DNA of 64,000 nucleotides, from the IMG/VR virus record IMGVR_UViG_3300010354_000053, positions 40,758-104,757 of that record. One strand, given 5' to 3'. A program made the position numbers and the translations under genes. Positions 537-61,832 of the stretch are shown piece after piece. A model generated the notes under the pieces. The model ran no database searches. It was not told where the DNA came from and saw only the letters and a list, made by a program, of their open reading frames with translations. The stretch comes from a virus. How positions within the stretch are numbered: the stretch's first letter is position 1; the number at the start of each line of letters is the position of its first letter.

Positions 537-729
537 TATCCTCTTTCTGGTTCATGCGAGGTTCTTTGTATGCTTTTTCTACACCATTCACAGCAGCCAA
601 TGCAATGGCTACAGACGCAATCGAGTTTGCAACATCCACATCATTAACAAATCCTAGAATTGCTAAAATTGTGATTGTATAAAACGCAATTGCAGTCCGC
701 CTGCAACCATTAAATGGTGTTAATAACAT
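490..729 (-). CDS. Putative holin
   Basis: 79 aa, two hydrophobic segments, charged C-tail, immediately upstream of the endolysin. Confidence 0.6.
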   Translation of the reverse strand: MLLTPFNGCRRTAIAFYTITILAILGFVNDVDVANSIASVAIALAAVNGVEKAYKEPRMNQKEDIEYAGNGQKNKKTSS

Positions 730-1226
730 TACTTATATTTCTTCTTTAATAAAGAATGAGCCTTTTTAAGAGCTTCTGCACTTCCAAACCCTTGTTTTTT
801 AACTGGTTTGTCGTTTACAGATTTTTCTTCGCCCATTCTTTCAGAATAATCACCTATCACATCAGACTCTGGAATTTCTCCGGCGACGGCGCCTTCTTTT
901 GGTTTTTTTGGCAAAGCTGGATTTTTTGTTTGCTCTGCAGATTTTTCCATATCTTCTGTTTTTGCCATTGCAGTTTGTGATGACGTTTGCACCAAGGCGG
1001 GATTAGGTTCCATGCCTGGCATTGAACCGCCGGCTGGCATAGCCTGTTTTTGTAATTCTGTAGCTTTTTCCATACGTAGTTTATTAAAAACCTGAGCACG
1101 ATCTTCAGCATCAACTTTTGGGATAACTTCATTAACTTTAGCAGGGCCTTTAATTTCTTCTACCGCTTGATCAACCGACAATCCTTTGCACATTTTGTGC
1201 ATTTTTTTAAGATGTTGAACGCTCAT
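729..1226 (-). CDS. Hypothetical protein, probable head-internal protein
   Basis: Low-complexity, several MEKA/MEKS/EEKS/LKKA motifs like those in the scaffold and capsid; start moved to the ATG at 1226. Confidence 0.45.
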   Translation of the reverse strand: MSVQHLKKMHKMCKGLSVDQAVEEIKGPAKVNEVIPKVDAEDRAQVFNKLRMEKATELQKQAMPAGGSMPGMEPNPALVQTSSQTAMAKTEDMEKSAEQTKNPALPKKPKEGAVAGEIPESDVIGDYSERMGEEKSVNDKPVKKQGFGSAEALKKAHSLLKKKYK

Positions 1227-1321
1227 TTTTTTCTCCAAAAAAACCTTGACTTTTAATGAAATTAATGCCATTGTCTTATATTAGCAAATCGCTAGTATAA
1301 ATTATACACTTGGAGTCGCCT

Positions 1322-2245
1322 ATGGCAATTGATTTAAGCAAAATGACGTTTGGCGCTGAACTAGAACTTGGCGATGTTGATACAAAAATTATTCTGCCGC
1401 TAGGTAATAGATGGTGTGATAAAGATGGATCTATTTGTAATTCCAATGGAACTGCAAACGATCCGAAAAAAGTTTTTAATCGGTATGGTGGTGAGATTCA
1501 AATGAAGCCTGAAAACTCTCCGGAAGAGTTGCTTCGAGCCACTAAAGAAATCTACGACCTTCTGCCTAAAAAACACTTTAACTTTACCACTAATTTGCAT
1601 GTTCATATTCGTATTCCCGGACTTAAGGATGACTTAGAGGCCCTAAAGAAAATTGCTGCGTATCTTCGTAAATATGACGAAGAAATTTATGAACTTATAG
1701 ACCCAAATCCATTCCCAGAACGACAACTTAAATTTTCCAATCCTGACTTTTACAACGGCGCAGTCTCGAGATGGCGTCGTCGTAATAAGTCACATAGGTA
1801 TCGGGTGACAGAAAAAGTTCATAAATTAATGATGAACGCAAAATCACCACGCGAGTTCTACGAGGCTCACGCCCCTAAAAATCGTTTTGGACAACCAATG
1901 TGGCATGTTGTGGTCAGAGCCGGTGTGAATCTCAAACAAGTATTTGAAGATACTGAAACTATTGAGTTTCGGCATTTTACAATGTCACCAGATCTAAATA
2001 AGATGTTGTCGGCATATAAGTGGCCTAGGCTTCTTATGGAAGCAATTTTTGTCACGGGGCACACACCGAAGCAGATTTTAGAAAACAATCCAGACTTGGT
2101 ATTCCAAAATTTTCATCCGTATGATCACGAACTAGATAAAATCTTTAGGCAAACCAATGTTTACCATAACAAACGTTCCGAAGTGCGGGAAAACTATAAA
2201 CGTTTAATTGAGCAGGGCCTAGTTGACGAACAGACTCTTTATTGA
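1322..2245 (+). CDS. Putative amidoligase (COOH-NH2 ligase, Amidoligase_2-like)
   Basis: TFGAELE, GGEIQMKP, NLHVHI, TIEFRHF motifs; GGAG RBS at 1312. Confidence 0.8.
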   Translation: MAIDLSKMTFGAELELGDVDTKIILPLGNRWCDKDGSICNSNGTANDPKKVFNRYGGEIQMKPENSPEELLRATKEIYDLLPKKHFNFTTNLHVHIRIPGLKDDLEALKKIAAYLRKYDEEIYELIDPNPFPERQLKFSNPDFYNGAVSRWRRRNKSHRYRVTEKVHKLMMNAKSPREFYEAHAPKNRFGQPMWHVVVRAGVNLKQVFEDTETIEFRHFTMSPDLNKMLSAYKWPRLLMEAIFVTGHTPKQILENNPDLVFQNFHPYDHELDKIFRQTNVYHNKRSEVRENYKRLIEQGLVDEQTLY

Positions 2246-2252
2246 GGATTGC

Positions 2253-2705
2253 ATGAAAGTTTTATTTATTTGTACGGGTAACAAGTTTCGTAGTCCAACT
2301 GCGGAACATATTATGAAATGCCTAGCCCCGCATTTAGAAGTTAAATCGGCTGGAACAGCGGAAGGCGCTCATAAAAACTATTTAATGGCCAAAAAAATGC
2401 GTCGTTGTTTAATTGAATTAGGTTATCCTGAGCCCGCAATACGTTCTCAGCATCTGACGGCGGAATTAATGGAGTGGGCAGATATTGTTTTATATATGGC
2501 CCCTACACATTTCAACTATATGTACAAAAATCATGTCCAATTTATACATAAATGCAGGCCGCTCTACACCGTCCTGCCAGACCTTGATTTAAAACGAATT
2601 GAAGACCCTGCTTTTATTAAAAAGCATGAAGATGTTATGGAAGTAACTAAAATTATTGAAGATTCGATTAAAAAAATACTAAACGATGAAGCAAAACTAA
2701 TTTAA
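2253..2705 (+). CDS. Low-molecular-weight protein tyrosine phosphatase/ArsC-family protein
   Basis: VLFICTGNKFRSPTAE P-loop (CX5R), SAGT, WADIVLYM, IEDP. Confidence 0.88.
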   Translation: MKVLFICTGNKFRSPTAEHIMKCLAPHLEVKSAGTAEGAHKNYLMAKKMRRCLIELGYPEPAIRSQHLTAELMEWADIVLYMAPTHFNYMYKNHVQFIHKCRPLYTVLPDLDLKRIEDPAFIKKHEDVMEVTKIIEDSIKKILNDEAKLI

Positions 2706-2935
2706 ACTTCGGAATTACCGATCTTATTCTTTTGACGAGAACCTGTTGGAATAGATGTACCCGGAAGTTTAGGAGCTTCTGGCATTTTTATTTCTGAAGT
2801 TTTAACTGTAGTTTTTTTAGAAGTAGAAGATACAGAACCGTCAAGAATTTTGTACATTCTGTCTTGTACAGTTTCTGCAGGTGTGGATTTAGTCATTTTC
2901 TTGCACAGTTCGACTATTTCTAACAGTTTGTTCAA
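2702..2935 (-). CDS. Hypothetical protein
   Basis: 77-aa ORF in the minus-strand operon. Confidence 0.5.
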   Translation of the reverse strand: MNKLLEIVELCKKMTKSTPAETVQDRMYKILDGSVSSTSKKTTVKTSEIKMPEAPKLPGTSIPTGSRQKNKIGNSEV

Positions 2936-3425
2936 GTTCGGCCTCTGTTACAATCCAAGGTGGTACGCAAACCATTTTATGCTCTATTTTACCATATTGG
3001 ATATTAGATAAAAAAGGCTTCATGAGTTCTTGTTCATCTTGATGGCGATTTTCTTTAATATAACCAATGTTATCGATATTTTTATCCAGTAATTTAGACA
3101 TACAAGCCATACAAGGCTGAACACTCACAATAAATTGGTATTTATGGATATTGATTGTTTGAATCATCTTTTCCAGAAGATCTGTCTCCGCATGGCGAAT
3201 TAAGAATTTTTTAGCAGGATTTTTATCAATATTTAACTCGGCAAGAGCTTTTGAATTTTTTTCAAAAGCAGAAATTATCTTGTTAACGCCATAAGCAATA
3301 ACAGAATTTGTGGATGTATCTACAGCAATTGCGACTACCTGAACTAGAGGATCACTACTTCGTTTTTTAAGAACGTCAAATAGGATCTCGGTACTAACTA
3401 CAGGGAAGGAGCCGTAGACAAACAT
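2889..3425 (-). CDS. dCMP deaminase-like zinc-dependent deaminase
   Basis: HAE and PCxxC (RHAETD...QPCMAC) motifs; KRSSDP..QV.A N-terminal pattern. Confidence 0.8.
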   Translation of the reverse strand: MFVYGSFPVVSTEILFDVLKKRSSDPLVQVVAIAVDTSTNSVIAYGVNKIISAFEKNSKALAELNIDKNPAKKFLIRHAETDLLEKMIQTINIHKYQFIVSVQPCMACMSKLLDKNIDNIGYIKENRHQDEQELMKPFLSNIQYGKIEHKMVCVPPWIVTEAELEQTVRNSRTVQEND

Positions 3426-4036
3426 TCTTTAATTCCTTGTTGTAGTTTTTGTACTACTTGTTCGGGTGAATCTTCAAAATCTACTTTTACGAGAGTAACA
3501 GGAGCGCGACATAAATCCAAGAAATAACCTACGCACATCTTTGCCCTATCCATAAACACTTGAACATTATTGAATGTCAAGTCAGGAAGTCTTTCTTCAA
3601 CAATACCAGCATTTTTTCTTCGCAAAGAAAGACGTTCTCTAATCTTTTCTACAGTAAAATCGTAGTGTACAACAACGACTTTAATGTCTTCTTTATGGCG
3701 ATATTCATTAACCATTTCTACCCAACGAGACGTAGACATAACGCCATCGATAATAACTGTATCTGACAGCTCGAGAGCATCAAAGAAACCTGTTCTAACT
3801 AGCGATGGTGTAGTTATGGAATCTGTGCCAGAATTTTTATTACCAACCAAAACACAATTATCATATTGAACAATACTATATTTCTGCTCAATTGTAGCTC
3901 CCCTGTTGGGCATACGTTTTTTAATAAATTTACCCATTTTAGAAATTTCTTTGCCATCTCCTTGGCAAAAAGTATTTCTGGTGGTGGTTTTGCCGGTTGC
4001 ACCTGCGCCCATTAGAAAAATTGCTACTTTAGTCAT
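3398..4036 (-). CDS. P-loop nucleotide kinase, candidate 5-hmdU DNA kinase
   Basis: Walker A GAGATGKTT at the N-terminus, GTDSI motif, VIIDG Walker B, ERLSLRR lid; two genes from the amino acid:DNA transferase. Confidence 0.72.
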   Translation of the reverse strand: MTKVAIFLMGAGATGKTTTRNTFCQGDGKEISKMGKFIKKRMPNRGATIEQKYSIVQYDNCVLVGNKNSGTDSITTPSLVRTGFFDALELSDTVIIDGVMSTSRWVEMVNEYRHKEDIKVVVVHYDFTVEKIRERLSLRRKNAGIVEERLPDLTFNNVQVFMDRAKMCVGYFLDLCRAPVTLVKVDFEDSPEQVVQKLQQGIKECLSTAPSL

Positions 4037-4403
4037 GAAAGCCCTCAATATACTCTTGATTTGTTTTATGGCATTTAAAACAAATTCTGTTTCCGTTTGG
4101 TGAAAAGAAAACATTGTTGCATTTTAAACAATTTCTATTTTTTGCAATGGCAGAACCGTGTTCTGAAAAAAACTTCTCGTCCGCTTTTCGTAGTTCTTCC
4201 ATAAGCTGTTTGTGTCGCTCTTTACGTCTATTTGACGTTCGCTCTTTATTCTTTTTTATTTTTTCTGTTAAATCAATCCAGTTTAAATTATGTTGAATAA
4301 CATAATTTTGCATGAATGATTCATGATTATCAATGGATGGTACTGGAATATTGAGAGTTTTGCAAAACATTTTTAATGTAATTTTAGTTTCATTAACAAT
4401 CAT
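4029..4403 (-). CDS. Hypothetical protein with C-terminal zinc ribbon
   Basis: CLKC...ICFKC. Confidence 0.55.
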   Translation of the reverse strand: MIVNETKITLKMFCKTLNIPVPSIDNHESFMQNYVIQHNLNWIDLTEKIKKNKERTSNRRKERHKQLMEELRKADEKFFSEHGSAIAKNRNCLKCNNVFFSPNGNRICFKCHKTNQEYIEGFHD

Positions 4404-4413
4404 TACTCTGCCC

Positions 4414-4743
4414 TTATTCTAATTCAGCACCCATGTCTACGATACCTTCTTTCTGCAACAACGAAAGGGCTAACACTCGTTTAGAATCTGCAAAATTTCT
4501 TGTTTCATTGAAGGCACTGCGAAAAGTTTGCAGAACTTCTTGAGCAGCTTTAAATTCCGAATTAGCTTCCATTTCTTTCTTTGCCTTCAAAACATGCGCA
4601 TTCTGTTCTGCAATGATCTGTTTTAGTTTATCGACGTTATAAGTTTTTAGCATTTGCAATTCATCGTAAGAATAATTCTTTACAAACGCTTTTTCAATAT
4701 CACTCAGATGGCTGTACTTATTTGACTTACTCTTCTTTCTCAT
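4414..4743 (-). CDS. Hypothetical coiled-coil protein
   Basis: 109-aa helical ORF in operon. Confidence 0.55.
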   Translation of the reverse strand: MRKKSKSNKYSHLSDIEKAFVKNYSYDELQMLKTYNVDKLKQIIAEQNAHVLKAKKEMEANSEFKAAQEVLQTFRSAFNETRNFADSKRVLALSLLQKEGIVDMGAELE

Positions 4744-5603
4744 TTAACATCCTCCACAAAAAGTAATTGTTTCGTTTTAATGTATGCAGTTTTTTCTTTT
4801 ACTGAAAAATGGTGTTGTAAAAACTTATGATCAAATTCACATTCATCTATTAAATTCCAAAATACGTTATCTGAATACAATTCTGGTTTTTTAAGAACTA
4901 AAAATTCATTAATGTCATGTCCAACTACATAACTCCCCTTGTGCAGTATTTTAGGCACTTTACACAAACAGCTTTCTACTTGACCAATCGGCGCGTTCCA
5001 AATTTTTGATAAATTCCAACCCAAAGCTTCCCATTCTGGGATTATGTCTTTAGTAAATTTTTGATTAATACCATATAGGTAACGAAGTCCAAATACTGGT
5101 CCAGTATTTTTGTTAGGATCAGAGCTTTCGATTCCTAACCCATTAATACGAAAGCTTTTATATCCAAGCGTTTGATCCATGAGTTCACAAGTTTTATAGC
5201 AGGCCCAATCACCAAAATATGGAATAGTCTTGAATAACTCTCTTCCGCTGTTAAAATCTAACTGCTCTGTTTTAAGCGTTGATTCAACTGTTAACCATCT
5301 ATCAAAAGCTTTTTCAAAATTTTCAGTTCGTCGCACTTGTGGTGTTCGACCACGTTCCATTCCAAACTTACTGATTTTTTCAAACATCTGAATGGGTGTT
5401 TTACCTTCAGCAATTCCCCGCATGAATAAAACCATGCTTTCGATAGAATAGTAATATACGTACATGAAAATTGCGGTTTCGGGGTCAAATTTTTCGTGAT
5501 TAATAATTGATTTTAGAAAAGGATAAACAGGGTCAACATCTTGTGTGCGAATTAAAGCTAAGCTAGCCTTCTCGAAATCAGAAAAGTTAAATAGATGTTG
5601 CAT
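4740..5603 (-). CDS. Amino acid:DNA transferase (aGPT-Pplase2/ADDT family)
   Basis: LIRTQDVDPVY, G.ER, FGDWACYK..E, VESCLCK, GSYVVGHDI motifs recalled for this HhH-glycosylase-like family; start uncertain (5603 or 5654). Confidence 0.8.
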   Translation of the reverse strand: MQHLFNFSDFEKASLALIRTQDVDPVYPFLKSIINHEKFDPETAIFMYVYYYSIESMVLFMRGIAEGKTPIQMFEKISKFGMERGRTPQVRRTENFEKAFDRWLTVESTLKTEQLDFNSGRELFKTIPYFGDWACYKTCELMDQTLGYKSFRINGLGIESSDPNKNTGPVFGLRYLYGINQKFTKDIIPEWEALGWNLSKIWNAPIGQVESCLCKVPKILHKGSYVVGHDINEFLVLKKPELYSDNVFWNLIDECEFDHKFLQHHFSVKEKTAYIKTKQLLFVEDVK

Positions 5604-6492
5604 ATAAATACTCTTGAACGCCGTCAGCAAGTTCTTTAATGTATGTTGGAGCATGGCGTAAGCCGTTTGCAGATTTTGGAGTTACATACATACAATTACC
5701 TTCTTGAATAAACGCATGTAAATAGTCTTCCATATAAGCTGGCCTCCAGCCTGTTTTTGGCTCTCCCGTTATTTCAATACTTACCTGGCCATTGGTTACT
5801 TTAGAAATATGCTCAATAATTTTTTGAATTTTATCTTTAATTTCTAAATCTTTTTGTTCTTTTTGATAAATAAAATGAGTACCAAGATAATAGGCATCGG
5901 TAGTGGGTTTTGGATATAGATACGCATTAATAAAACGACCTTCTTTTGCATTTAAACAAAATCTTGGATAACGATCAAATACTTCTCCGCTTGGCTTGCA
6001 CTCTACCGACCATCCCCAACGATAATCGGTAGGTTTATATTTATGAAAACCATTAGCGTGAATAATAAGGCGATTTGTTGGAGTTTTATTTATGCGAGAA
6101 GAAAAGAAAAAATCTTGGGTAAACTGCACAAACGCTTGTACATTAACATGCATTGATTGTTTGTTTAAAACTTTAATATTACCTATAGTTTGCACGTACC
6201 TGAGTTCTTTAGAATTATTATGATGCGGAATGCTTTTTTGGGTATATCCGTAAGGGACAGCTTCTGAAAAAAGAATAATTGGTCTGCGGTCTGTTTGGCT
6301 GAACGATTGTAGCCAAAGGTTATAATTAATTGCATCTAGCTCTTCACCTGATGGGTAAATACACCCAGTACTTGCCTTCCATGCACCGGGTGAATCGTCG
6401 TCTTCCCACGAAAACATAATTTTTCTACTAGTAAGCTCCCAAGCAAGAAGTGAACCAATCAATCCAAAGCCTTTAATATGTACTGTAGACAT
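5587..6492 (-). CDS. FAD-dependent oxidoreductase (DAO/glycine oxidase-like), candidate flavin-dependent lyase
   Basis: N-terminal GFGLIGSLLAWEL Rossmann motif, GAWKASTG, C-terminal GWRP and NGLRHAP. Confidence 0.8.
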   Translation of the reverse strand: MSTVHIKGFGLIGSLLAWELTSRKIMFSWEDDDSPGAWKASTGCIYPSGEELDAINYNLWLQSFSQTDRRPIILFSEAVPYGYTQKSIPHHNNSKELRYVQTIGNIKVLNKQSMHVNVQAFVQFTQDFFFSSRINKTPTNRLIIHANGFHKYKPTDYRWGWSVECKPSGEVFDRYPRFCLNAKEGRFINAYLYPKPTTDAYYLGTHFIYQKEQKDLEIKDKIQKIIEHISKVTNGQVSIEITGEPKTGWRPAYMEDYLHAFIQEGNCMYVTPKSANGLRHAPTYIKELADGVQEYLYATSI

Positions 6493-6508: not shown

Positions 6509-7003
6509 TTAGTACGGACCAAATGCTCCTCCGCCTCCGCGGCGCCGCGATGGCACTGCATTCTGGCGTTGTTGTTCTTCCCACTCCCTCTGCAACTCCT
6601 CTTGTGTTGCCGTTAGTACTGGCGACGGCGTGCGTTGATTCGCCGCCGTTGTCCCGTTTCCCACAGGTTGCTGCTGTTTTGGTGTAGGAGAAGAAAGATT
6701 TTGGTTAATTCGTTGCAATACTTCCACTACAGGATTGCTAGAAATTTCTTTAAACAGAGCCGCTAGCTTTACTGCCTTTTCTTCTACTTCGGATATTGCT
6801 TTAGCCGTTTCTGGATTGTTATTTTCTAGTAATTGCTCCAGCACAATGTTTAGGCTTTTTTGAATATGCCCCCAAAGAAATTCTCCGCTAGGAAGGGTCA
6901 AAATGCCCTCTTTAAGAGCTTCATTCTCGAGAGCCGATTGAACATCGCTCAGTAATTTAATTTTTTCTTTCTTGTCCATATCATCCCTCGTAAATATCAG
7001 CAT
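6509..7003 (-). CDS. Hypothetical protein
   Basis: 164-aa ORF downstream of recA. Confidence 0.55.
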   Translation of the reverse strand: MLIFTRDDMDKKEKIKLLSDVQSALENEALKEGILTLPSGEFLWGHIQKSLNIVLEQLLENNNPETAKAISEVEEKAVKLAALFKEISSNPVVEVLQRINQNLSSPTPKQQQPVGNGTTAANQRTPSPVLTATQEELQREWEEQQRQNAVPSRRRGGGGAFGPY

Positions 7004-16436: not shown

Positions 16437-17104
16437 TGATAATGATCACGGACGATATTTATAATAAAAGCATTTATCCGCAGTGCGATTTTAGCATCAT
16501 TGAATTGCCCCTTGAGTCCAAAGACGCTAAAAAAATGTACCAGCAGCTGTATAAAACTCAAAAAAATAACCATATTTCCCTTCAATACAGCAGACTTCCA
16601 AAAAAACTGCGCCTCAAAGCTATGAGCAATGTTTATTTGGGCGATGAAATTGGTTTTAAATTTTATGATTATATAACAATTGTTTCGCAGCAGCCGTGTA
16701 GGCAGCCTCCTAATCATTTATCCCCACTTGGAGAAGTCGGCATCTTATTTACTAAGAACGAAGAGCCGAATACTAAAACAACCAACTGGTTTAATCCCGA
16801 AATTGGCGATTGCACAAACGTTTGGGATGTTAGTTTTCAGCCAAAAGAGGGAAGCGGGCAGACTGTATCAAAAAAATTTGCGTGGGAGATAGGTTATCTT
16901 TTAGCAAATTTAGCGAGTCCGCTCATTTGTAGAAAATTTTTAATACTGGGTCTGCCTGAGTTGTCAATGGCAAGGTTTGCATTACATTCAAACTTGCAAA
17001 TGTATGCAATAACTTCAGATGAGTTTACGGCTAATAAAATTATCAAAGATTATGATAAGGCGTGTAAAAGCGAGGTACAGGATAAATCATGGCAAAAGAA
17101 ATAA
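16406..17104 (+). CDS. Hypothetical protein, possibly a degenerate N6/N4 DNA methyltransferase fold
   Basis: E.GILFTK...TNVWDV...KFAWE...L..LASP pattern; no DPPY or FxGxG motif. Confidence 0.3.
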   Translation: MQITSADGRIVIMITDDIYNKSIYPQCDFSIIELPLESKDAKKMYQQLYKTQKNNHISLQYSRLPKKLRLKAMSNVYLGDEIGFKFYDYITIVSQQPCRQPPNHLSPLGEVGILFTKNEEPNTKTTNWFNPEIGDCTNVWDVSFQPKEGSGQTVSKKFAWEIGYLLANLASPLICRKFLILGLPELSMARFALHSNLQMYAITSDEFTANKIIKDYDKACKSEVQDKSWQKK

Positions 17105-18699
17105 AATATGGACACGAGGCAAGAAATAAAGCCGTTCAAGCATTGGAAGAAATTTCCTATATTGTTGGCAGTACTCTTGGGCCTGGTGGTAAAACTGTTC
17201 TTTTAAGTCGTCGTAATTCTGCCGATGAAATTTCTGTTTCTCATACTAAAGACGGGTTTAATGTATTAAACAGTTTGCGTTATACCGATCCGGTATTTGA
17301 CGCCGTGCATAAACTTTGCCTACAGGCTAGTGCAAACTCGGTTGTGTCATCCGGAGACGGCACAACTTCAACTATTGTAATGGCTGCAGCTTTTGCTAAG
17401 GCTCTGGTCAATAGTGGAAATAATCCACAGGCGGCAGCTCGAAAGTTTCGCAAAGAAATTCAAAATGCTATAGAGGCTATTAAAAGCGAAGCTGTGGCTA
17501 GTGATGAAGCAGTTTATAAAGTGGCGCTTACTAGTGCTAACGGAGATGAGGAGCTTACTAAGTTTGTAATGGATGCAGTATCTCAAAGCTCAGCTTATGG
17601 AACTGTAATTGTAGAAAAGAACCCTATGTCTAAAGATCCTTATAGGATTGATAAGGAATACGGTTACCAAGCTGGCACAGGATACAGCTATTATCTGCCA
17701 TTTGCGCAAAGCATTCGACCAAACTTAGCAAATAATGCCGAGTTTACTCTTAAAAAATGCCATGTATTGCCATATAACGGCGACCTAATGATGATGTCTC
17801 AAGTTAAGCCAATGCTGGAGTCTTTAGCAAGAAATGCAACCGGTGGATGGAACTTATTGATTATTTGTCATCAGATTGCTGAAGATTTGGCTGCAAATTT
17901 GGCATTTTTTAATCGACAAAACCCTAATGCAAAAGTGTTTGTTGTAAGAACCACGCCCTCGGCAGAGCTGAATGGGCAGGTCCAACAACTTAATGATATT
18001 GCCTCGTATACTGGGGCAAAAGTTATGGATGGGGGCAGTTTAACTCACTTGGTGATAGAAGATTTTGGCGACTGCCAGTCAGTTCGGATTGGACCACATA
18101 AAACTTTCATCTTAGGCAAATCTGAACGTAATTGGATTATTGAGCGAGCAGAACAAAATGAAGAATCGGCTCGCCTAGCACCAAGCCAAATGGATCGTGA
18201 CATCATTCATTCCCGTAATGCATCGCTGACTGGTGGTTGTGTCAAGCTTATTATTGGCGGTTCGTTAATGAGTGATCTACAAGAACGAGCCGACCGTGCT
18301 GATGACGCTATTAAAGCTTCGCAAGCTTGTTCACGCTCAGGAGCTCTGCCGGGCTGCGGTGCATCGTACATGCGAGCGGGGCAGCAAGCTAAGGTTTCTG
18401 AATCCGTACAGACAGCGCTTGCGAGCATTCATAATGTGATTATGACAAATTTTGGCGAAACGCCTATGAAGCATTTTGATAAAAATCAAACATATTATAT
18501 TACCGACAATGATATCCAAAAGGTCGAAAACTTTTTAGACCATGGAGTTGCTGATAGTTTTGAAACTATTCGGTCAGTTATCACAAACGCCTTTGAACTA
18601 GGTTTGTTGGTGACAAATTTAGGTGGATATAGCCTTGAAGCAGATTTAGATCAAATGGAGCAGGCGGCAAGGGCTAAAGAAATTTTAAGAGGCGTATAG
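17089..18699 (+). CDS. groEL: Chaperonin GroEL-like
   Basis: MAKEIKYG, TLGPGG, TKDG, GDGTTS, SANGD, DDAIKA, GALPGCG. Confidence 0.92.
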   Translation: MAKEIKYGHEARNKAVQALEEISYIVGSTLGPGGKTVLLSRRNSADEISVSHTKDGFNVLNSLRYTDPVFDAVHKLCLQASANSVVSSGDGTTSTIVMAAAFAKALVNSGNNPQAAARKFRKEIQNAIEAIKSEAVASDEAVYKVALTSANGDEELTKFVMDAVSQSSAYGTVIVEKNPMSKDPYRIDKEYGYQAGTGYSYYLPFAQSIRPNLANNAEFTLKKCHVLPYNGDLMMMSQVKPMLESLARNATGGWNLLIICHQIAEDLAANLAFFNRQNPNAKVFVVRTTPSAELNGQVQQLNDIASYTGAKVMDGGSLTHLVIEDFGDCQSVRIGPHKTFILGKSERNWIIERAEQNEESARLAPSQMDRDIIHSRNASLTGGCVKLIIGGSLMSDLQERADRADDAIKASQACSRSGALPGCGASYMRAGQQAKVSESVQTALASIHNVIMTNFGETPMKHFDKNQTYYITDNDIQKVENFLDHGVADSFETIRSVITNAFELGLLVTNLGGYSLEADLDQMEQAARAKEILRGV

Positions 18700-29033: not shown

Positions 29034-29561
29034 ATGAATTTATTTGTTATTGGGAACCAAAAAGAAAGCGCTCAAGCTCTTGATGACCGTCGTTTGGTAA
29101 AAATGACAGTTGAAACTTTACAGTTGTTTGCATACGCTATGAACAACTTGGAAATTTCCGACTCGTTTTATCCAATTTCAAAAGAAACTGGCCTGCCATA
29201 TAAGTCAAAAAACTCCCACACTAAACATCCGGTAACCTTGTGGCTACAAAAATCTGTTGGAAACTTTGACTGGATGTTTATTTATCTGCAAGAAATGATG
29301 GCAGAATACGAGCATCGCTTTAATAAGCCGTCATTCGTTGACCCAATTAACTTAGAGCGCATCCAATCTGCTAGAGGCTTGTGGCCAGTCGGTCAACTCA
29401 CACCTTTTGCAAACTGTTCATTACACCAAGATATCGAAGATACTCTAGTTGCCTATAAGAAAACACTAGTGGACAAGTGGAAAAAAGGAGAACTTTCTAC
29501 TAAAACCATTCCACGGTGGACAAAGCGGGGGCGACCAAACTTTGAGCTCACATCATGCTGA
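29034..29561 (+). CDS. Pyrimidine-dimer DNA glycosylase (DenV/endonuclease V)-like protein
   Basis: MNLFV...AQALDDRRLVKMTVETLQL...H.KHPVTLW...EY..RF. Confidence 0.7.
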   Translation: MNLFVIGNQKESAQALDDRRLVKMTVETLQLFAYAMNNLEISDSFYPISKETGLPYKSKNSHTKHPVTLWLQKSVGNFDWMFIYLQEMMAEYEHRFNKPSFVDPINLERIQSARGLWPVGQLTPFANCSLHQDIEDTLVAYKKTLVDKWKKGELSTKTIPRWTKRGRPNFELTSC

Positions 29562-32962: not shown

Positions 32963-32991
32963 AAGGCTGGGTTTCCCCAGCCTTTTTTTTT
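32963..32991. terminator. Rho-independent terminator, probably bidirectional
   Basis: AAGGCTGGG-TTTC-CCCAGCCTT followed by T-run, A-rich on the other side; between convergent genes. Confidence 0.88.
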
Positions 32992-34048
32992 ATTTCCTAA
33001 AATGTGATCCGTTTTCTTTTACGCCATTTGCAGTAACTAAAACAAACTCAGCAATGCTATGGAATTGCTCTAAATTAGCCGCGCCGCAATAAGAAAATGC
33101 TGATCTAAGACCACCATTAATTTGTTGCAATATAGTTTGTGTTTCTGTAATTGAAGAAATTATATGAGAAGAGCCCTCTGGCGCTCTGTGACTAGCTTCT
33201 TTATTTTGGTCTTTATAAGAGCTGAGGCTTGCAGAACCTCTAAATTCATTAGGACGCTCACAAGCTGTTGAGCCGGCTAACATTCCGCCAATCATAACTG
33301 CTTTTGCACCAGCTGCTAATGCCTTAGCAATATCTCCGCTTGTTTTACAACCACCATCGGCAATTAATGGATATTTATCTGGAGAATTATTCATTATGGC
33401 TGACAGCTGAGGAAATCCGCATCCGGTCACAGTTCGAGTTTCGCAGACAGAACCTGGGCCGATTCCAATTTTGTAACCAATAATATTACTTGGTTTTCTG
33501 TGTAAAACTGATCCATTGTCTGTTACCGATTTTAAAAATGGAAAAATATCAATAAAATTACCAATTACATAATCAATGTGAGGATGATCTTCTGCAATAT
33601 CTGCAAGAAACTCTGCAACTTGCGATTGAGCGGCGTGTGCAACATCAATAACAAACGTTTTGACTCCTAATTTTTCTAGCTCATCGTGCCGCTCTCTACT
33701 TTTTTTATCAATACCGATAGATGCCCAAAAATTTATACCCTGTTTAAGTAAACTTTCGGCAATAATACAGTTTTCTTCGACACTCATAAATCGATGGAGA
33801 CAGCCGATTCCACCCGCTTGGTGCATTGCTATACACATATTATGGCCAGTAATTGTGTCCATGTTTGCAGAAATAACTGGGAGTGTAAGATTAGTATAAC
33901 GGCCAATCTTGGTTGATAAATCAACTTCTGACCTAGAAGTAATTGTCGAAAACTTTGGGACAATTAAAACATCATCAAACGTATATCCTATTTTTTGACT
34001 TAAAAATGCCATTTTGTCCTCGTTATGCACGCCATCAAAGTTCTCCAA
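32990..34048 (-). CDS. IMP dehydrogenase/GMP reductase family enzyme (no CBS domains)
   Basis: TFDDVLIVP, PVISANMDT, IDVAH, GIGPGSVCETR...G.PQLSAI, IADGG, AVMIGGMLAG. Confidence 0.9.
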   Translation of the reverse strand: MENFDGVHNEDKMAFLSQKIGYTFDDVLIVPKFSTITSRSEVDLSTKIGRYTNLTLPVISANMDTITGHNMCIAMHQAGGIGCLHRFMSVEENCIIAESLLKQGINFWASIGIDKKSRERHDELEKLGVKTFVIDVAHAAQSQVAEFLADIAEDHPHIDYVIGNFIDIFPFLKSVTDNGSVLHRKPSNIIGYKIGIGPGSVCETRTVTGCGFPQLSAIMNNSPDKYPLIADGGCKTSGDIAKALAAGAKAVMIGGMLAGSTACERPNEFRGSASLSSYKDQNKEASHRAPEGSSHIISSITETQTILQQINGGLRSAFSYCGAANLEQFHSIAEFVLVTANGVKENGSHFRK

Positions 34049-42508: not shown

Positions 42509-44428
42509 CTAGAATAAAATAGTTGCACTACCCGATTTTAACATTTTTTCTGCGTCTTCTTCGTTCTTTTTCTTAATATCTATATTGTATTCAGAAGCAT
42601 AATGAATACGCAATGCTTCTTGCATGCCTTCTACTGTAGTAAAACTAGGCTTTTTAGTATAATCAAACTGATCAGCCTGCGAAGCCTGAATTACCGATGC
42701 ATTGCTGGTTATAAATGGATCGATTGCATATCGAAGAGCGTCAGGACCATGGGTGAAATCGTCATCAGCAAATCGCGAGTAATCATACCCCATTGCCCCC
42801 TTAGCGTATGTCCAGTTTTCCATGCATTTAATTAAAAACAAATTTTTGGGGTCATCTAATATGATGAAATGCGCCTGTTGTCTCATTGCGTTCCATAATT
42901 TTGAACGAATCCATGATACGCCAGTATCAATAGTTAATGGTTTTTCTCCCCTAGCAGGCATATTCATGCTCCCCGCTACAGAAGTTGAAGATTTGTCGGC
43001 TGTGTCTGGACACAGGAGGTCAAATCCGTACTTAAGATAAATGTTTTCTTTCACAAAAGCAAGCCAGTCCGGATTTGCGTAACCGGTTGAATGTTCTGTA
43101 TGGAGAACAAGCATTTTATCGTCTGATTTTTTATATGCTATCAAAATAGCTACTGCTGGGTCAATGAATCCAAAGTCAACACCACAATGCAATCGCCAGC
43201 CATTTGCTCTTAGTTCTCTAATTAATTCATCTTTTGAAATATCACGTATGTTGCCAAATCGATCTGTAGGAAAGGTACTGAAGGCAAAGTTCCAACATTC
43301 TTGGACTGTCTTTACATGAATATTACGATTGAATTTATTGAACACAATACCCGAAGACTCAGGTTTTAAGTTAAGAATCTGTGCGTTAATCTTATCTGGA
43401 TCGCCGGCATTGAGCAGAGTATTCTTAACAAAGCCTAAGTCGCGTAGCATTTTTGATTTAGATTGTTGTTTAACTGATTTTGTTCGACAAATAGAAAATA
43501 CAGGACATGTTTTGCAGCCTTCATATGCCAATATAGATGAATATACAGCCTTAGATTCCGGATTAAGAGCATTAAATGCATTATTTGGCAATACTTCTAG
43601 CGTCTCGGGATGGACATGGAGCATACTTTGCGGTAAATCGGGCTTATGGCGCTCGGGTGGACATGTTTGCATCCAATCTACAATAGACCATTTGTGTAGT
43701 CTGATGCCTGAATTTGGCATATCTGCTTCGTCAATTTTTTGCTGGATTGGTCCAGAACCAGATTTTCTGGACGACAAGTAAATAAAGATTGGCGGTTTAC
43801 CAGAGCGGTCAGGGTCAGCAATGAAAGTTGCCTCAGAAAGAATATCTTTATCAATGAGGTCTAGCTCATCGAAAATGAGGCATGATGCACGTTGGGCGTT
43901 TGCAGACTTTTTAGTTGATACAACGACTTGTAGTTTGCTATATCCAACGGGACGATGAGGTGATGGTGGTAATCTATTAAGCTCTTTTATTCGTTTACTA
44001 TCAGTTTTTGCGAAATTAGAAATAATCGGCAAAGCGAGGTGCTTGTCCAAATAACGAATTGCGGCCAAAGATTGGTCTAAAATTGCTGCCATGTGGACTA
44101 TATCTCTGGCAAAATGAACCATAAGTAAGAATTCAATAATAGAAGATGCTAATGTTTTTGCTGAGTTACGGCTTGCAGCTACAACGAACGTTGTTCTGTT
44201 GGGATCGCCGTCTTTAGCGGCAGAATAAACGTCCCAGATAAAATCCATTGGATTAGAATTACTATTATCATCTACGGTGCAGTCCGGTAAATCAATATCT
44301 AAAAATGTCTTAATCCACTGCTTAAGCTGAGCTTTACTTTCACAAACAGCAAAAAATTGCTCTTCATACAGCTGATTTAACGCTGCATTAAGCTGATTTT
44401 CATTTGTTAATTGCTGTTTTTTATTCAT
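42509..44428 (-). CDS. Terminase large subunit
   Basis: AASRNSAKT Walker A variant, LIFDELD Walker B, GVDFGFIDP nuclease motif, HGPDALRY. Confidence 0.88.
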   Translation of the reverse strand: MNKKQQLTNENQLNAALNQLYEEQFFAVCESKAQLKQWIKTFLDIDLPDCTVDDNSNSNPMDFIWDVYSAAKDGDPNRTTFVVAASRNSAKTLASSIIEFLLMVHFARDIVHMAAILDQSLAAIRYLDKHLALPIISNFAKTDSKRIKELNRLPPSPHRPVGYSKLQVVVSTKKSANAQRASCLIFDELDLIDKDILSEATFIADPDRSGKPPIFIYLSSRKSGSGPIQQKIDEADMPNSGIRLHKWSIVDWMQTCPPERHKPDLPQSMLHVHPETLEVLPNNAFNALNPESKAVYSSILAYEGCKTCPVFSICRTKSVKQQSKSKMLRDLGFVKNTLLNAGDPDKINAQILNLKPESSGIVFNKFNRNIHVKTVQECWNFAFSTFPTDRFGNIRDISKDELIRELRANGWRLHCGVDFGFIDPAVAILIAYKKSDDKMLVLHTEHSTGYANPDWLAFVKENIYLKYGFDLLCPDTADKSSTSVAGSMNMPARGEKPLTIDTGVSWIRSKLWNAMRQQAHFIILDDPKNLFLIKCMENWTYAKGAMGYDYSRFADDDFTHGPDALRYAIDPFITSNASVIQASQADQFDYTKKPSFTTVEGMQEALRIHYASEYNIDIKKKNEEDAEKMLKSGSATILF

Positions 44429-45348
44429 AGCCCATAATACTTGCGGTTTCTTCCTTTTCCTTCAAGGAGACTGCAATATTTTCTAAACTCGCAAGCAATT
44501 CCTTCAATATTACAAGTTGTGATTAGTATTTTTTTATCATCCTTAGCTAAATAAGGAAAACTATCAACTGGTTGGTGTTTCATCAGAGTGAAGGCAACGT
44601 CTTCAGGTTTAGCTTTAGGATTGAGTATCTTACAAGTAGGGGCTGCTCCGCGACCCATTTCTAAATATTTAAACTCATCAATATATTCGGGAAATTGATA
44701 ACCAAAATCCATCATAATTTCTGTCATATGGAATGGATTTTTAAACCCTAGAATACTATGAATGCTATTTGTAAGATACTGTATGCTGTGTTTTTTGTTT
44801 GACATCAACAAATCATAAATAGGATGAACAAGTTCTGGTAATTTTTCATACAAAAATTCTTCGCGATTTTTAGCCCCAATAATTGACAATCCTGCTTGCG
44901 GAAACAAATAGGCTGTATTAAATTTAGGACCTTCTATTGAAGAAAACCTAGTTCTGGATTCTAAATTTTCAGATTTATCTAGGGAAATATTACCAGTAAT
45001 TTGAAGAGTGCTAGGCATATTAATATATCTAGCAAACATTATATTAAGTAATGCTAGTTTTTTATCGTGAAGGCACGGTTGTAGCCACTCGTGAATCCAC
45101 AATGAAACCTTATCAAGTTCTCTATAACAATTAGTGAAATAATTTCTGTTTAAAATTACATCTTCAGTCCATGGTCTAGGTTGTCCACTATCCTTAAGAT
45201 GAAAGATTTTCATTCTTTCGATTGCAAAATCCCAGTACCTTTGCTCAATCGCTGAATCTATTGCAACTTCTCGACCGTTCATCCATCCAAATTCTTGGTA
45301 TTGGTCAAAATGTTTATATAAATTTAAAGCTTTAGCTTTTGCACTCAT
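44425..45348 (-). CDS. aGPT-Pplase1 / 5-hmdU DNA kinase helical-domain family protein
   Basis: YWDFAIERMKIF...G.PRPWTEDVIL...FTNCYRELDKVS, FARYIN, GRGA, IEGIACEFRKY motifs. Confidence 0.85.
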   Translation of the reverse strand: MSAKAKALNLYKHFDQYQEFGWMNGREVAIDSAIEQRYWDFAIERMKIFHLKDSGQPRPWTEDVILNRNYFTNCYRELDKVSLWIHEWLQPCLHDKKLALLNIMFARYINMPSTLQITGNISLDKSENLESRTRFSSIEGPKFNTAYLFPQAGLSIIGAKNREEFLYEKLPELVHPIYDLLMSNKKHSIQYLTNSIHSILGFKNPFHMTEIMMDFGYQFPEYIDEFKYLEMGRGAAPTCKILNPKAKPEDVAFTLMKHQPVDSFPYLAKDDKKILITTCNIEGIACEFRKYCSLLEGKGRNRKYYGL

Positions 45349-60776: not shown

Positions 60777-61832
60777 GTGAAAAGAATAAGTAAGGTGGAA
60801 AGAATGAGTGCAGATTTACTGATTGGAGCCCCAGACTTATTTAAAGAATATCTTCAGTCTAACCCCTATTTATTTGAGGCGGGGGCTAGTAAATCTATTA
60901 AAATGCACGAACTCATGCCGTATAACAAAACTGGGATTTTACCAGAACTAGAGCTACAGATTAGGCAACTCCATAAGAAGTATCATCCGAATATAATCAC
61001 GCCAAGCACTAAAATCGTTGTGTCAAATGGCGCAACACATATGTTAATGGCTCTACTCGGCTTGGCCGCCGATTCTTATTCTTCTGTTTATGTGCCAAAA
61101 CCATATTGGTTTAGAATTCCAGATATGGCAAAAATGCAGCATGCTAATATTACAGATCAGATTCAAACAGAAAGTCAAGTGCAACTAATTACATATCCAA
61201 ATAATCCCGATGGAAAAATTTTAAGTAATTTTGGAAGTTGGCCAAACGTATGGTATGACGCTGTTTATCACTGGCCATGGTATTTCAGAAGTCAATCAGA
61301 TTGGGAAAATAATCCGCTTCCTTCAATACCAGAAATTGCTATCTTTAGCCTCTCAAAATGCACAGGGCATTGTGGCTCTCGAATTGGATGGGCGCTAATT
61401 AATAGCGATCATCATTTAGCTAACTATTTAAATTCGTATGTTGAATATGATACGAGCGGAGTGTCAGTAGAGGCTCAGGCTCGTGCCGCAACGGTATTAG
61501 AAGTGTTTATGGCAAAAGATATCGGAAGTGAATATAAAAAACTTTTAGATGCAAGAAAAGATGAGCTACGCGAAGTGTTAAAAAAATTTTCCGATATTCA
61601 TGGAATAGAATTCAGTAATAAAAATTTTATGATTGATAATGGTATGTTCGGTTGGATTAACGATGAACACAATGCATTTTTGTATTCTGAAATCAATTTC
61701 ATGGACGGTCGAAAATGTGGGGCCGATAAAAAAGGGTTTTTACGTATAAACCTATGCGCCTCGTCAGAAAATTGGAATGAGGCTATGTTTAGATTAAACA
61801 TGTACCTATTTAATTTATGTGAGTCAATATGA
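60777..61832 (+). CDS. PLP-dependent enzyme, alliinase/tryptophan aminotransferase (TAA1/TAR)-like
   Basis: ITYPNNPDG, YDAVYHWPWY, FSLSKCTGHCGSRIGWALI (PLP lysine), GVSVEAQ.RAA.VL, G.KCGADKK.FLRINL. Confidence 0.85.
   Translation: MKRISKVERMSADLLIGAPDLFKEYLQSNPYLFEAGASKSIKMHELMPYNKTGILPELELQIRQLHKKYHPNIITPSTKIVVSNGATHMLMALLGLAADSYSSVYVPKPYWFRIPDMAKMQHANITDQIQTESQVQLITYPNNPDGKILSNFGSWPNVWYDAVYHWPWYFRSQSDWENNPLPSIPEIAIFSLSKCTGHCGSRIGWALINSDHHLANYLNSYVEYDTSGVSVEAQARAATVLEVFMAKDIGSEYKKLLDARKDELREVLKKFSDIHGIEFSNKNFMIDNGMFGWINDEHNAFLYSEINFMDGRKCGADKKGFLRINLCASSENWNEAMFRLNMYLFNLCESI

Follow-up and report, generated by a model that had tools for sequence, protein, structure and literature searches.

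Among the described systems closest to the locus studied here, Pseudomonas phage PaMx11 makes 5-acetylaminomethyl-dU through a glycine:DNA transferase (gp46), a flavin-dependent lyase (gp47), an acetyltransferase (gp48), a 5-hmdU DNA kinase (gp49) and a dUMP hydroxymethylase (gp51) (PMC8989533, PMC11472151). The roles of the gp46 active-site residues are taken from PMC11472151, where E243 and T244 hold the metal bound to thymine O4, and 5-hmdU is the substrate of every characterised amino acid:DNA transferase (ADDT) (PMC8989533). A different five-gene cluster, encoding a ParB-like nuclease, a TET/JBP, an aGPT-Pplase2, a 5-hmU DNA kinase as well as one hypothetical protein, occurs in Gordonia phages (Sourvirus: Wooper, CaiB and others) and in Rhodococcus phage Tonitrus (PMC11955845). 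Lee et al. (2021) further described metavirome clusters with a 5-hmdU DNA kinase (5-HMUDK), aGPT-Pplase2, a flavin oxidoreductase and an amidoligase/amidotransferase, which were flagged there as uncharacterised.

The window analysed here comprises 64,000 nucleotides (positions 40,758 to 104,757) of IMG/VR record IMGVR_UViG_3300010354_000053, a 64% complete genome of an uncultured large phage. We consider it probable, with moderate confidence, that it encodes a pathway of the 5-HMUDK/ADDT kind for the post-replicative hypermodification of a pyrimidine, in which an amidoligase tailors a 5-aminomethyl base. With similar confidence, the genes of the pathway fall into an operon on the minus strand (from 6509-7003 down to 2702), a plus-strand pair (1310-2705) and a remote gene (44425-45348). 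Given that an amidoligase and a phosphatase stand in place of the usual last enzyme, and that close relatives carry a cytosine-type precursor enzyme, the phage probably makes a DNA base outside those described so far.

Gene arrangement and enzyme families

The two gene units run towards each other and meet tail to tail near 2702-2705, and every ORF listed in a preliminary description of the locus is present where it was placed (Table 1). The entire block is colinear in three relatives, and its minus-strand core is retained in L004, a relative of 49% identity. Taken with the recurrent adjacency of the ADDT and the flavoenzyme, this conservation indicates that the gene arrangement is not due to chance. 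Among the window's own proteins in this block only LMWPc and dCMP_cyt_deam_1 matches pass the Pfam cut-offs, and the other identities rest on family-level tests: the ADDT, DAO and Amidoligase_2 scores of the proteins themselves are below threshold, but the family-level tests support each of these calls. Family searches gave no significant match for the 124-aa and 109-aa products, and the 164-aa ORF had no match in Pfam, PHROG, NCBIfam or the ESM Atlas.

Table 1. Genes of the proposed pathway and neighbouring ORFs in the window
Feature	Position	Strand	Remarks
Amidoligase_2-family carboxylate-amine ligase	1310..2245	+	likely start ATG 1322
LMW phosphatase (LMWPc)	2223..2705	+	likely start ATG 2253
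Small conserved ORF, 77 aa	2702..2935	-	last gene of minus-strand operon; conserved in L001-L004
CDA-fold zinc deaminase, divergent dCMP-deaminase-family member	2889..3425	-	PF00383 and zinc motifs
P-loop kinase, 5-HMUDK type, divergent lineage	3398..4036	-	motifs and profile match
124-aa protein	4029..4403	-	basic region and C-terminal CxxC...CxxC zinc ribbon; conserved in L001-L004
109-aa ORF	4414..4743	-	conserved in L001-L004
ADDT, clade 2 aGPT-Pplase	4740..5603	-	PF18724 matches of homologs, gp46 structure, catalytic residues
FAD-dependent amine oxidase/lyase, D-amino-acid/glycine oxidase (GR2) fold	5587..6492	-	structure and context
164-aa ORF	6509..7003	-	first gene of block, after recA/uvsX-like gene; conserved in L001-L004
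Stand-alone HMUDK_hel domain protein (formerly aGPT-Pplase1)	44425..45348	-	in packaging module

The match of the ADDT itself to PF18724 is weak (E 0.055, 13.6 bits against a cut-off of 26.2); 14 of its 19 homologs match this family, and the family profile matches the PaMx11 gp46 glycinyltransferase (PDB 8z2m, 5.7e-6). Judged from sequence correspondence, all the catalytic residues of gp46 are retained: D24, E92, W146, K150, E243, T244, C247, D262 and E265 are equivalent to D24, E83, W133, K137, E210, S211, C214, D230 and E233 of the window protein, with S211 at the T244 position. A longer start at 5654 was rejected, as homolog lengths give it no support. The kinase, whose homologs are 212 aa long, contains a Walker A motif (GAGATGKTT) and a conserved SGTD motif, and hhalign aligned it to a 47-sequence profile of gp49/Wooper-type 5-HMUDKs over 183 columns (98% probability, E 2.5e-13). 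The hypermodification cluster proposed in the preliminary description proved genuine and of the 5-HMUDK/ADDT type. The fold class of the kinase is that of NMP kinases, a PDB profile search leading to adenylate kinase (1.1e-5); no Pfam family was found for it, and tblastn against phage genomes gave no matches. About 38 kb away, beyond the range previously described, the HMUDK_hel gene is an extra member of the pathway (PF18723, 1.8e-21, 77 bits against a cut-off of 25; phrog_2396, 3.6e-25). It has an ortholog in the relative G002, a member of the family is also found in G005, and the domain occurs inside 13 amidoligase-bearing hypermodification clusters.

The flavoenzyme has a GxGxxG motif at its N-terminus, to which its weak DAO match (E 0.019) is restricted. 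Its AF2 model (pLDDT 90) matches D-amino-acid oxidase (DAAO; Z 21-22), CmiS2 (19.9), MnmC (19.5-19.8), iminodiacetate oxidase IdaA (19.4) and glycine oxidase (19.3). MnmC, CmiS2 and IdaA are enzymes that oxidise N-carboxymethyl amines. Orthology to PaMx11 gp47 (8z79) was rejected on account of the lower structural Z (16.7) and of sequence similarity confined to the first ~80 residues, and the flavoenzyme represents a lineage of the DAO superfamily separate from gp47. The PaMx11-style flavin lyase route suggested earlier thus survives in that the enzyme is placed to yield a 5-aminomethyl base, but not as orthology. Fold and gene context alone point to its probable substrate. It adjoins an ADDT gene in L004, L006-L008 and the Gordonia/Rhodococcus phages, even in loci with merely 26-31% identity.

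The deaminase matches PF00383 (dCMP_cyt_deam_1; 3.5e-7, 30.5 bits) and has in common with PaMx11 gp56 the HAE and PCxxC zinc motifs as well as the S.DP and G.N motifs. Its nearest ESM Atlas clusters belong to the viral dCMP-deaminase family (0.90-0.91), and among PDB sequences its closest match is a generic nucleoside deaminase (6l2m, 2e-5); none of the solved dCMP deaminases matched at E <= 0.01, and the ComEB equivalog scored 15 bits against a cut-off of 219. The earlier label of dCMP deaminase is therefore appropriate for the family, but not as a specific identity.

The dUMP hydroxymethylase sought in the rest of the genome did not emerge, there being no thymidylate-synthase (TS) homolog in the 64% complete record. 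In the two closest relatives, G001 and G002, the only TS homologs are of the T4 gp42 type; they have Asp at the N177/D179 position, a residue that points to dCMP and not to dUMP, and in the tree they fall with T4 gp42 (support 99/98). Neither ThyX nor a true TET/JBP is encoded in the complete genome of G002. Judged by colinearity, the hydroxymethylase gene would be located ~7.4 kb past the 5' end of the record. With a gp42-type Asp enzyme in the closest relatives and no dUMP type found, the route to the precursor, or even the base targeted, may depart from the scheme of ViI, M6 and PaMx11.

The amidoligase-phosphatase pair

The amidoligase scores 19.9 bits against PF12224, under the cut-off of 22, while 26 of 40 sampled relatives match the family (best 8.4e-11). 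The top 19 structural matches of its AF2 model (pLDDT 96) are all of the YbdK, glutamate-cysteine ligase, glutamine synthetase or PafA type (Z 6-10.3, followed by a drop to ~4), and the modelled fold is accordingly that of a carboxylate-amine ligase. The phosphatase (PF01451, 5.5e-15, 56 bits) has the C-X5-R-S P-loop CTGNKFRS and the EDP general-acid motif, and its gene overlaps the 3' end of the amidoligase gene.

The preliminary description had these two genes, both present, merely facing the cluster; comparative analysis instead reveals a dedicated, widely conserved tailoring pair. In 72 of 80 viral loci the gene immediately downstream of the amidoligase, on the same strand, encodes LMWPc. 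Among 77 viral loci of more distant amidoligase relatives, a set from which close relatives were left out, a same-strand LMWPc adjoins the amidoligase in 69, a 5-hmdU-pathway marker is present in 62, usually in the same operon, and a 5-HMUDK-type kinase in 54. A gp48-like acetyltransferase was found in none of the 77. In eight of the 13 that contain a gp47-type gene (L031, L086, L088-L090, L093, L094 and L106) the pair is located between gp47 and gp49, and thus occupies the gp48 slot of PaMx11 in PaMx11-like operons. Amidoligase-LMWPc fusions also exist, and other fusion partners of amidoligase relatives are a TET-associated glycosyltransferase and a P-loop kinase.

A proposed pathway and its alternatives

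From the enzyme families and folds, the conserved catalytic residues and the gene linkage, we infer the substrates, a step order and a final product, leading from a hydroxymethyl base via a phosphate ester, an amino-acid adduct and a 5-aminomethyl base to an amide: 1) The hydroxymethyl nucleotide probably comes from a hydroxymethylase of the gp42 type whose gene lies in the portion of the genome absent from the record, and the operon deaminase, by conjecture, probably converts hm-dCMP to hm-dUMP. 2) The P-loop kinase, probably aided by the HMUDK_hel protein, would act on a pyrimidine that is already part of phage DNA, phosphorylating its 5-hydroxymethyl group. 3) The conserved cysteine of the ADDT would attack C6, with expulsion of the phosphate and addition of a free amino acid, most likely glycine, through its alpha-amine. 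4) The DAO-fold flavoenzyme would oxidise the N-C(alpha) bond, hydrolysis yielding the 5-aminomethyl base and a 2-oxo acid. 5) The carboxylate-amine ligase would use ATP to join a carboxylate to the 5-aminomethyl amine, acting together with the tightly coupled LMW phosphatase; the carboxylate could be glutamyl, a guess by analogy with the structural relatives of the ligase. The product would be an N-acyl-aminomethyl base, as against the N-acetyl form of PaMx11. A glutamine-synthetase-type reaction leaves no phosphorylated product on which the conserved phosphatase could act, which counts against this ligase-phosphatase scheme.

A less probable reading, which we hold as a minority possibility, is that the target is cytosine: the gp42-type enzyme would supply hm-dCTP and hence 5-hmC in DNA, from which the kinase, ADDT, flavoenzyme and ligase would build an amino-acid-derived 5-substituted cytosine, with the deaminase merely supplying dUMP to the host thymidylate synthase, like T4 cd. 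The Michael-addition/exocyclic-methylene chemistry of ADDTs should in principle suit either pyrimidine, the sole TS-family gene of G002, a genome lacking ThyX and any true TET/JBP, is of the gp42 type with the cytosine-specifying Asp, and the window kinase and flavoenzyme are divergent lineages. Against this, E210 and S211 correspond to the gp46 residues that hold the thymine-O4-bound metal, the deaminase is conserved within the operon, and characterised ADDTs all act on 5-hmdU (PMC8989533). Moreover, the G005 ADDT, 39% identical to that of the window, and a related kinase accompany a normal dUMP-type hydroxymethylase, which argues that the window ADDT lineage acts on a uracil-type base.

It is improbable that the pair instead amidates the free carboxylate of the ADDT-added amino acid or acts on a phosphorylated intermediate, with the flavoenzyme working on a different product or branch. 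The close coupling of the phosphatase is a hint that the substrate or an intermediate is phosphorylated, and many TET-type clusters combine the amidoligase and LMWPc with a divergent ADDT and a kinase but have no flavoenzyme, so that the pair does not strictly require a 5-aminomethyl substrate. Yet it would be wasteful to amidate the carboxylate of a glycine that is subsequently cleaved, and in PaMx11-like operons it is precisely gp48, the enzyme acting after gp47, whose place the pair takes (PMC8989533). Plain 5-aminomethyl-dU as the final base, proposed in the preliminary description, with the pair an unrelated neighbour serving, for example, metabolite or cell-envelope modification, a role suggested for other phage amidoligases, is very improbable: the pair is on the strand opposite to the ADDT operon and none lies within 10 kb at the L004 locus, and phage amidoligases, in that case with GATase as the partner, have been discussed in contexts other than DNA (PMC10580990), but the pathway genes in 62 of 77 loci and the fusions to modification enzymes speak against it.

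Comparison with described systems

The window shares with PaMx11 a kinase, an ADDT with corresponding catalytic residues, a GR2/DAO-fold flavoenzyme and a nearby deaminase, and this amidoligase-LMWPc pair recurs in metagenomic PaMx11-like operons, where it separates gp47 from gp49. It differs in that, as noted earlier, the acetyltransferase is absent, a carboxylate-amine ligase and an LMW phosphatase being found instead, and the final base should differ from that of PaMx11. Furthermore, the flavoenzyme is of a lineage other than gp47, the kinase is divergent, HMUDK_hel stands alone 38 kb off, and the genes are divided over two strands; the close relatives have a gp42-type (Asp) hydroxymethylase, whereas that of PaMx11 is of the dUMP type.

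Of the annotated proteins, the one nearest to the flavoenzyme (27-30% identity, E 1e-19 to 1e-23) is the product of the fifth gene of the Gordonia/Rhodococcus phage cluster, annotated as hypothetical or oxidoreductase; this gene lies directly after the kinase, at most two genes from an ADDT. In these phages a TET/JBP dioxygenase that works on DNA provides the 5-hmU, and the annotation of the Wooper region examined includes no amidoligase, phosphatase or deaminase. The clusters of Lee et al. (2021) have the same enzyme combination as the window; the main text of that study does not mention an LMW phosphatase partner, replacement at the gp48 slot or a cytosine-type hydroxymethylase.

The FAD domain of MnmC has the same fold as the flavoenzyme at ~13-14% identity, and in the conversion of cmnm5U to nm5U it oxidatively removes an N-carboxymethyl group to leave aminomethyl-uracil, the chemistry proposed here; unlike the window enzyme, it has tRNA as its substrate and a methyltransferase as its fusion partner. 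Finally, the TS homolog of the closest relatives shares with the T4 gp42 dCMP hydroxymethylase its short length, the ELxWY and SNYG motifs, Asp 179 and a common clade, at only ~31% identity, and the gp42-type enzyme is coupled here to an ADDT pathway, whereas that of T4 is coupled to glycosyltransferases.

Genomic setting and layout of the cluster

The DNA-base hypermodification cluster is real, and comprises a minus-strand operon, a convergent plus-strand pair of genes for an amidoligase and an LMW phosphatase (LMWPc), and a remote HMUDK_hel gene. It resides in a large tailed phage, whose IMG/VR record spans 104,757 bp (64% complete according to CheckV), with the window at bases 40758-104757. 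The surroundings of the cluster include genes for RecA/UvsX-like, Rad50/Mre11-like and GroEL-like proteins, a DnaB-type helicase, ribonucleotide reductase, a primase and a GMP-reductase-family protein; farther along the window are matches to portal and tail-sheath proteins, and weak matches to terminases. A megablast search of phage genomes with the first 20 kb recovered no close relative among sequenced phages.

ORFs were found exactly where the preliminary description had placed them. Between 7003 and 2702 the genes of the minus strand abut or overlap their neighbours and constitute one operon, which the plus-strand pair meets tail to tail. When the proteins of the window were searched alone, the LMWPc and cytidine/dCMP deaminase domains passed their cut-offs, while the other enzyme labels of that description fell below cut-off or matched no family, the DAO match (E 0.019) being confined to the N-terminus. 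Each enzyme label was therefore tested at the family level.

Features of the window that are discussed in the text
Feature	Coordinates	Strand	Size, matches and setting
ORF of the split ortholog	729-1271	-	180 aa
Amidoligase-LMWPc pair	1310-2705	+	LMWPc: PF01451, 56.3 bits (cut-off 23.2)
Deaminase	2889-3425	-	PF00383, 30.5 bits (cut-off 25)
P-loop kinase	3398-4036	-	
Amino acid:DNA transferase (ADDT)	4740-5603	-	PF18724, E 0.055, 13.6 bits (cut-off 26.2)
Flavoenzyme	5587-6492	-	
ORF without family	6509-7003	-	164 aa
GroEL-like chaperonin	17089-18699	+	1e-28
Pyrimidine-dimer DNA glycosylase, T4 endonuclease V-like	29034-29561	+	Pyr_excise 1.8e-12; adjoins ribonucleotide reductase and primase genes
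GMP reductase/IMPDH family	32990-34048	-	4e-71
HMUDK_hel, stand-alone (formerly aGPT-Pplase1)	44425-45348		PF18723, 77.2 bits (cut-off 25), E 1.8e-21
PLP enzyme, alliinase/aminotransferase class I-II type	60777-61832	+	351 aa; Alliinase_C 5.6e-30

Certain other features of these genomes deserve mention. In the closest relative (L001:14350-16065) the ortholog of the 180-aa ORF is broken up, its two matching segments being separated by about 1.2 kb; this pattern suggests that the relative carries inserted DNA, perhaps an intron, an intein or a homing element. Three tandem paralogous ORFs of 244 aa each (L023, 10145-12341) in one of the two closest relatives (G001), and the numerous segments that match one another in the first part (1-15 kb) of the phage's own record, represent a repeated gene family. 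In the pathways of M6 and ViI, decarboxylation during tailoring is carried out by PLP enzymes, and the PLP enzyme of the window could be part of the modification system, although it lies 55 kb away from the cluster.

The transferase, kinase and deaminase of the operon

The protein labeled an ADDT did not reach the PF18724 cut-off by itself, and the label was borne out by its homologs. Of 18 such homologs the more distant ones carry PF18724, and the domain is matched by 14 of 19 full-length family members (35-91% identical), with a best value of 8.8e-7. Furthermore, the family profile retrieves the PaMx11 glycinyltransferase gp46 from the PDB (8z2m) at 5.7e-6. In the alignment, D24, E83, W133, K137, E210, S211, C214, D230 and E233 of the window protein correspond to D24, E92, W146, K150, E243, T244, C247, D262 and E265 of gp46, and these residues are invariant in 21 of 21 sequences, with one position alternating between Ser and Thr. 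The catalytic cysteine of gp46, the Glu and Thr/Ser that bind its metal, and its amino-acid pocket of Asp, Trp and Lys are thus all retained. The structural study of gp46 names the residues that bind the metal, clamp the base, bind glycine and form the phosphate pocket (PMC11472151), and every one of them is conserved in the window protein. Judged from these sequence features, membership in the ADDT group (clade 2 aGPT-Pplases) is secure.

The P-loop kinase proved more divergent: the window protein yields no family of its own, tblastn with it against phage genomes found no match, and among PDB entries its family profile is similar to adenylate kinases. Its homologs, of 212 aa, have, besides a Walker A motif, an SGTD motif that is invariant, and a G-[TC]-D motif is common to the window kinase and the kinases of 5-hmdU in DNA (5-HMUDKs). 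Comparison by hhalign with a 47-sequence profile of 5-HMUDKs of the PaMx11 gp49 and Gordonia phage Wooper types gave a probability of 98% (E 2.5e-13), the alignment spanning 183 of about 210 columns, nearly the full length. By these sequence relationships the protein is a divergent member of the 5-HMUDK group. Kinase and ADDT lie in the same operon with two small genes between them, both in the window and in four loci of relatives (L001-L004), and in a further viral locus (L005) they are at most 4 kb apart. The HMUDK_hel gene has an ortholog in the second of the closest relatives (G002) and a family member in a more distant genome (G005), whose ADDT is 39% identical to that of the window.

The gene directly after the kinase, a position conserved even in the 49%-identity relative (L004), had been labeled a dCMP deaminase. 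The deaminase fold is supported by the domain match and by the H-A-E and P-C-x-x-C motifs typical of the CDA fold, and the zinc and catalytic motifs are accompanied by some dCMP-deaminase-like motifs. The protein resembles viral clusters of the dCMP-deaminase family. The finer label fails at the equivalog level (TIGR02571 ComEB, 15.4 bits against a cut-off of 219), no solved dCMP deaminase was matched at E <= 0.01, and identity to PaMx11 gp56 is 21%.

The flavoenzyme and the amidoligase-phosphatase pair

No sequence family was detected for the flavoenzyme, its homologs included. Its model (pLDDT 90) adopts the two-domain fold of D-amino-acid/glycine oxidases (GR2/DAO), with an N-terminal FAD-binding GxGxxG motif. 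The structural matches comprise DAAO (Z 21-22 over about 280 residues), CmiS2 (19.9), MnmC (19.8), iminodiacetate oxidase (19.4), glycine oxidase (19.3) and, at rank 30, the PaMx11 flavin-dependent lyase gp47 (8z79; Z 16.7, 240 residues aligned). Alignment with gp47 by hhalign covers the first ~80 residues only, corresponding to the FAD-binding N-terminus (probability 66% against gp47 alone, 88% against a 13-sequence gp47 profile). Searches of the PDB recovered neither 8z2o nor 8z79 with the family profile at E <= 10, nor gp47 with the single sequence. Orthology to gp47 was hence rejected on the basis of the short span of similarity and the low structural rank; the flavoenzyme is in the superfamily of gp47, yet in a separate lineage.

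Its place in the pathway is assigned because of gene context. The flavoenzyme adjoins the ADDT in the window, in L001-L004 and in three further viral loci (L006-L008), and the two stay adjacent even where each is no more than 26-31% identical to its window counterpart. In Gordonia and Rhodococcus phages it directly follows the kinase, at most two genes from the ADDT; the unannotated fifth gene of their TET-ADDT-kinase clusters is a relative of the flavoenzyme. The product of this gene in Wooper (gene 5) gave no match to gp47 in pairwise BLAST. Several of the top structural matches are oxidisers of N-carboxymethyl secondary amines, a reaction demonstrated for gp47 and MnmC. If the flavoenzyme performs chemistry of this type, it would generate a 5-aminomethyl base, whichever alpha-amino acid is N-linked. 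The ADDT-flavoenzyme pair also occurs in a complete 327-kb jumbo-phage genome with terminal repeats (G006, locus L006), in which neither a thymidylate-synthase-family gene nor an HMUDK_hel gene was found.

For the amidoligase, the window protein missed the cut-off of Amidoligase_2 (PF12224; 19.9 bits against 22), and the domain was matched by 26 of 40 sampled relatives, the best at 8.4e-11, in a family of 306 representatives. A profile search of the PDB gave no match. All 19 matches of its model (pLDDT 96) at Z >= 6 (range 6-10.3) belong to the carboxylate-amine ligase superfamily, namely YbdK, glutamate-cysteine ligase (GCL), glutamine synthetases (GS), gamma-glutamylmethylamide synthetase and PafA/Dop; scores were 10.3 for 1tt4, 9.3 for GCL, 8.2-8.8 for GS and 8.5 for PafA, with the next matches at about 4. 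The LMWPc retains an intact C-X5-R-S loop (CTGNKFRS) and the general-acid Asp in an EDP motif. The two domains are fused in 7 of the 40 sampled relatives, and other amidoligase fusions involve a TET-associated glycosyltransferase, GATase or a P-loop kinase.

We scanned 80 viral loci with amidoligase relatives, and counted over the 77 that remained when close relatives were left out. The phosphatase lies directly downstream of the amidoligase on the same strand in 69 of these 77, at least one 5-hmdU-pathway gene is present in 62, the kinase in 54 and a gp47-type gene in 13; an acetyltransferase like PaMx11 gp48 was found in none. Most of the 13 gp47-bearing loci have the order gp46, gp47, amidoligase, phosphatase, gp49 (kinase), HMUDK_hel and dUMP hydroxymethylase, so that the pair takes the place that the acetyltransferase has in PaMx11. 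It is mainly for this reason that we propose that the ligase may acylate the amine of the 5-aminomethyl base. Three caveats attach to this proposal: a glutamine-synthetase-type reaction would leave the phosphatase with no obvious role, the pair is missing at L004, and it occurs in TET-type clusters devoid of the flavoenzyme. The recurrent operon at L036-L061, L091, L096 and L097 comprises a TET/JBP-type dioxygenase, amidoligase, LMWPc, a divergent ADDT (~1 kb) and a Wooper-type kinase, and such operons are a second context for the pair. The ORF without family upstream of the flavoenzyme was considered as a hidden acetyltransferase, and was discarded as neither family, PHROG nor ESM Atlas searches supported it. 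A literature search found no paper characterising the amidoligase step.

Origin of the hydroxymethyl base and comparison with known systems

The dUMP hydroxymethylase expected by the preliminary description was not recovered: the 104.8-kb, 64%-complete record contains no thymidylate synthase (TS)-family gene, be it ThyA or ThyX, and no TET/JBP gene. The two closest relatives, including the complete 169-kb genome G002, each have a single TS-family gene, and colinearity with G001 places the expected gene about 7.4 kb past the 5' end of the record. These relatives' proteins have the short length of T4 gp42, match T4-type dCMP hydroxymethylases best among annotated proteins, and group with gp42 (support 99/98) to the exclusion of SPO1 gp29, the ViI-like enzyme, YuA gp17 and PaMx11 gp51. 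They bear an Asp where thymidylate synthases and 4/4 reference dUMP hydroxymethylases carry Asn, a position that we take to switch specificity between dCMP and dUMP, following mutagenesis of thymidylate synthase and the T4 dCMP hydroxymethylase. G005 possesses a normal dUMP-type enzyme alongside its related ADDT and kinase.

We favour a precursor route in which hm-dCMP would be synthesized and then converted by the operon deaminase to hm-dUMP, because the relatives' only TS-family enzyme is of the gp42 type, G002 has neither ThyX nor a real TET/JBP, and the enzyme of G005 is of the dUMP type. The same gp42-type enzyme could instead supply 5-hydroxymethylcytosine (5-hmC) on which kinase, ADDT, flavoenzyme and ligase act directly; the kinase could target 5-hmC rather than 5-hmdU, and with a dUMP-type enzyme accompanying the related ADDT and kinase of G005 we regard this alternative as improbable. 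A trimeric dUTPase-family gene, present only in G002, fails to discriminate between the hmU and hmC routes, and no MazG-type pyrophosphatase was found in G000, G001, G002 or G005. A TET/JBP source of 5-hmU was rejected for this phage, as the phage's own record has no match and that in G002 is weak (17.8 bits against a cut-off of 34.9). The latter is a generic 221-aa 2OG-Fe(II)-oxygenase-like ORF with an HxD...H motif (G002:C1:79208-79870; L022:1489-2151, minus strand), inserted between the HMUDK_hel gene and a terminase-like gene, which lacks a counterpart in the genome of the window and does not resemble the Wooper TET.

Hypermodifications of phage DNA protect it from restriction enzymes and from CRISPR nucleases, and their enzymes serve the labelling of DNA and sequencing chemistry; we know of only a handful of end products of thymidine hypermodification. 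The tailoring pair suggests a family of N-acylated aminomethyl bases not yet described and, from its modeled fold, to a putative DNA-directed carboxylate-amine ligase, an activity of which, to our knowledge, there is no demonstrated example. The cytosine-type hydroxymethylase of this lineage also raises the question of where the hydroxymethyl base originates and which base is modified. If 5-hm-dUMP is derived from 5-hm-dCMP by deamination, the precursor would arise by a route not described before, and C as well as T could be replaced in the DNA; a 5-hmC target would represent the first amino-acid-derived hypermodification of cytosine.

Metavirome contigs combining 5-HMUDK, aGPT-Pplase2, flavin oxidoreductases and amidoligases were reported by Lee et al. 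2021, who called them uncharacterised. The logic of the pathway proposed here is that of PaMx11 (PMC8989533, PMC11472151), with an ATP-dependent amide ligase and a small phosphatase as a candidate tailoring module that recurs, where PaMx11 has its acetyltransferase, across dozens of uncultured phages.
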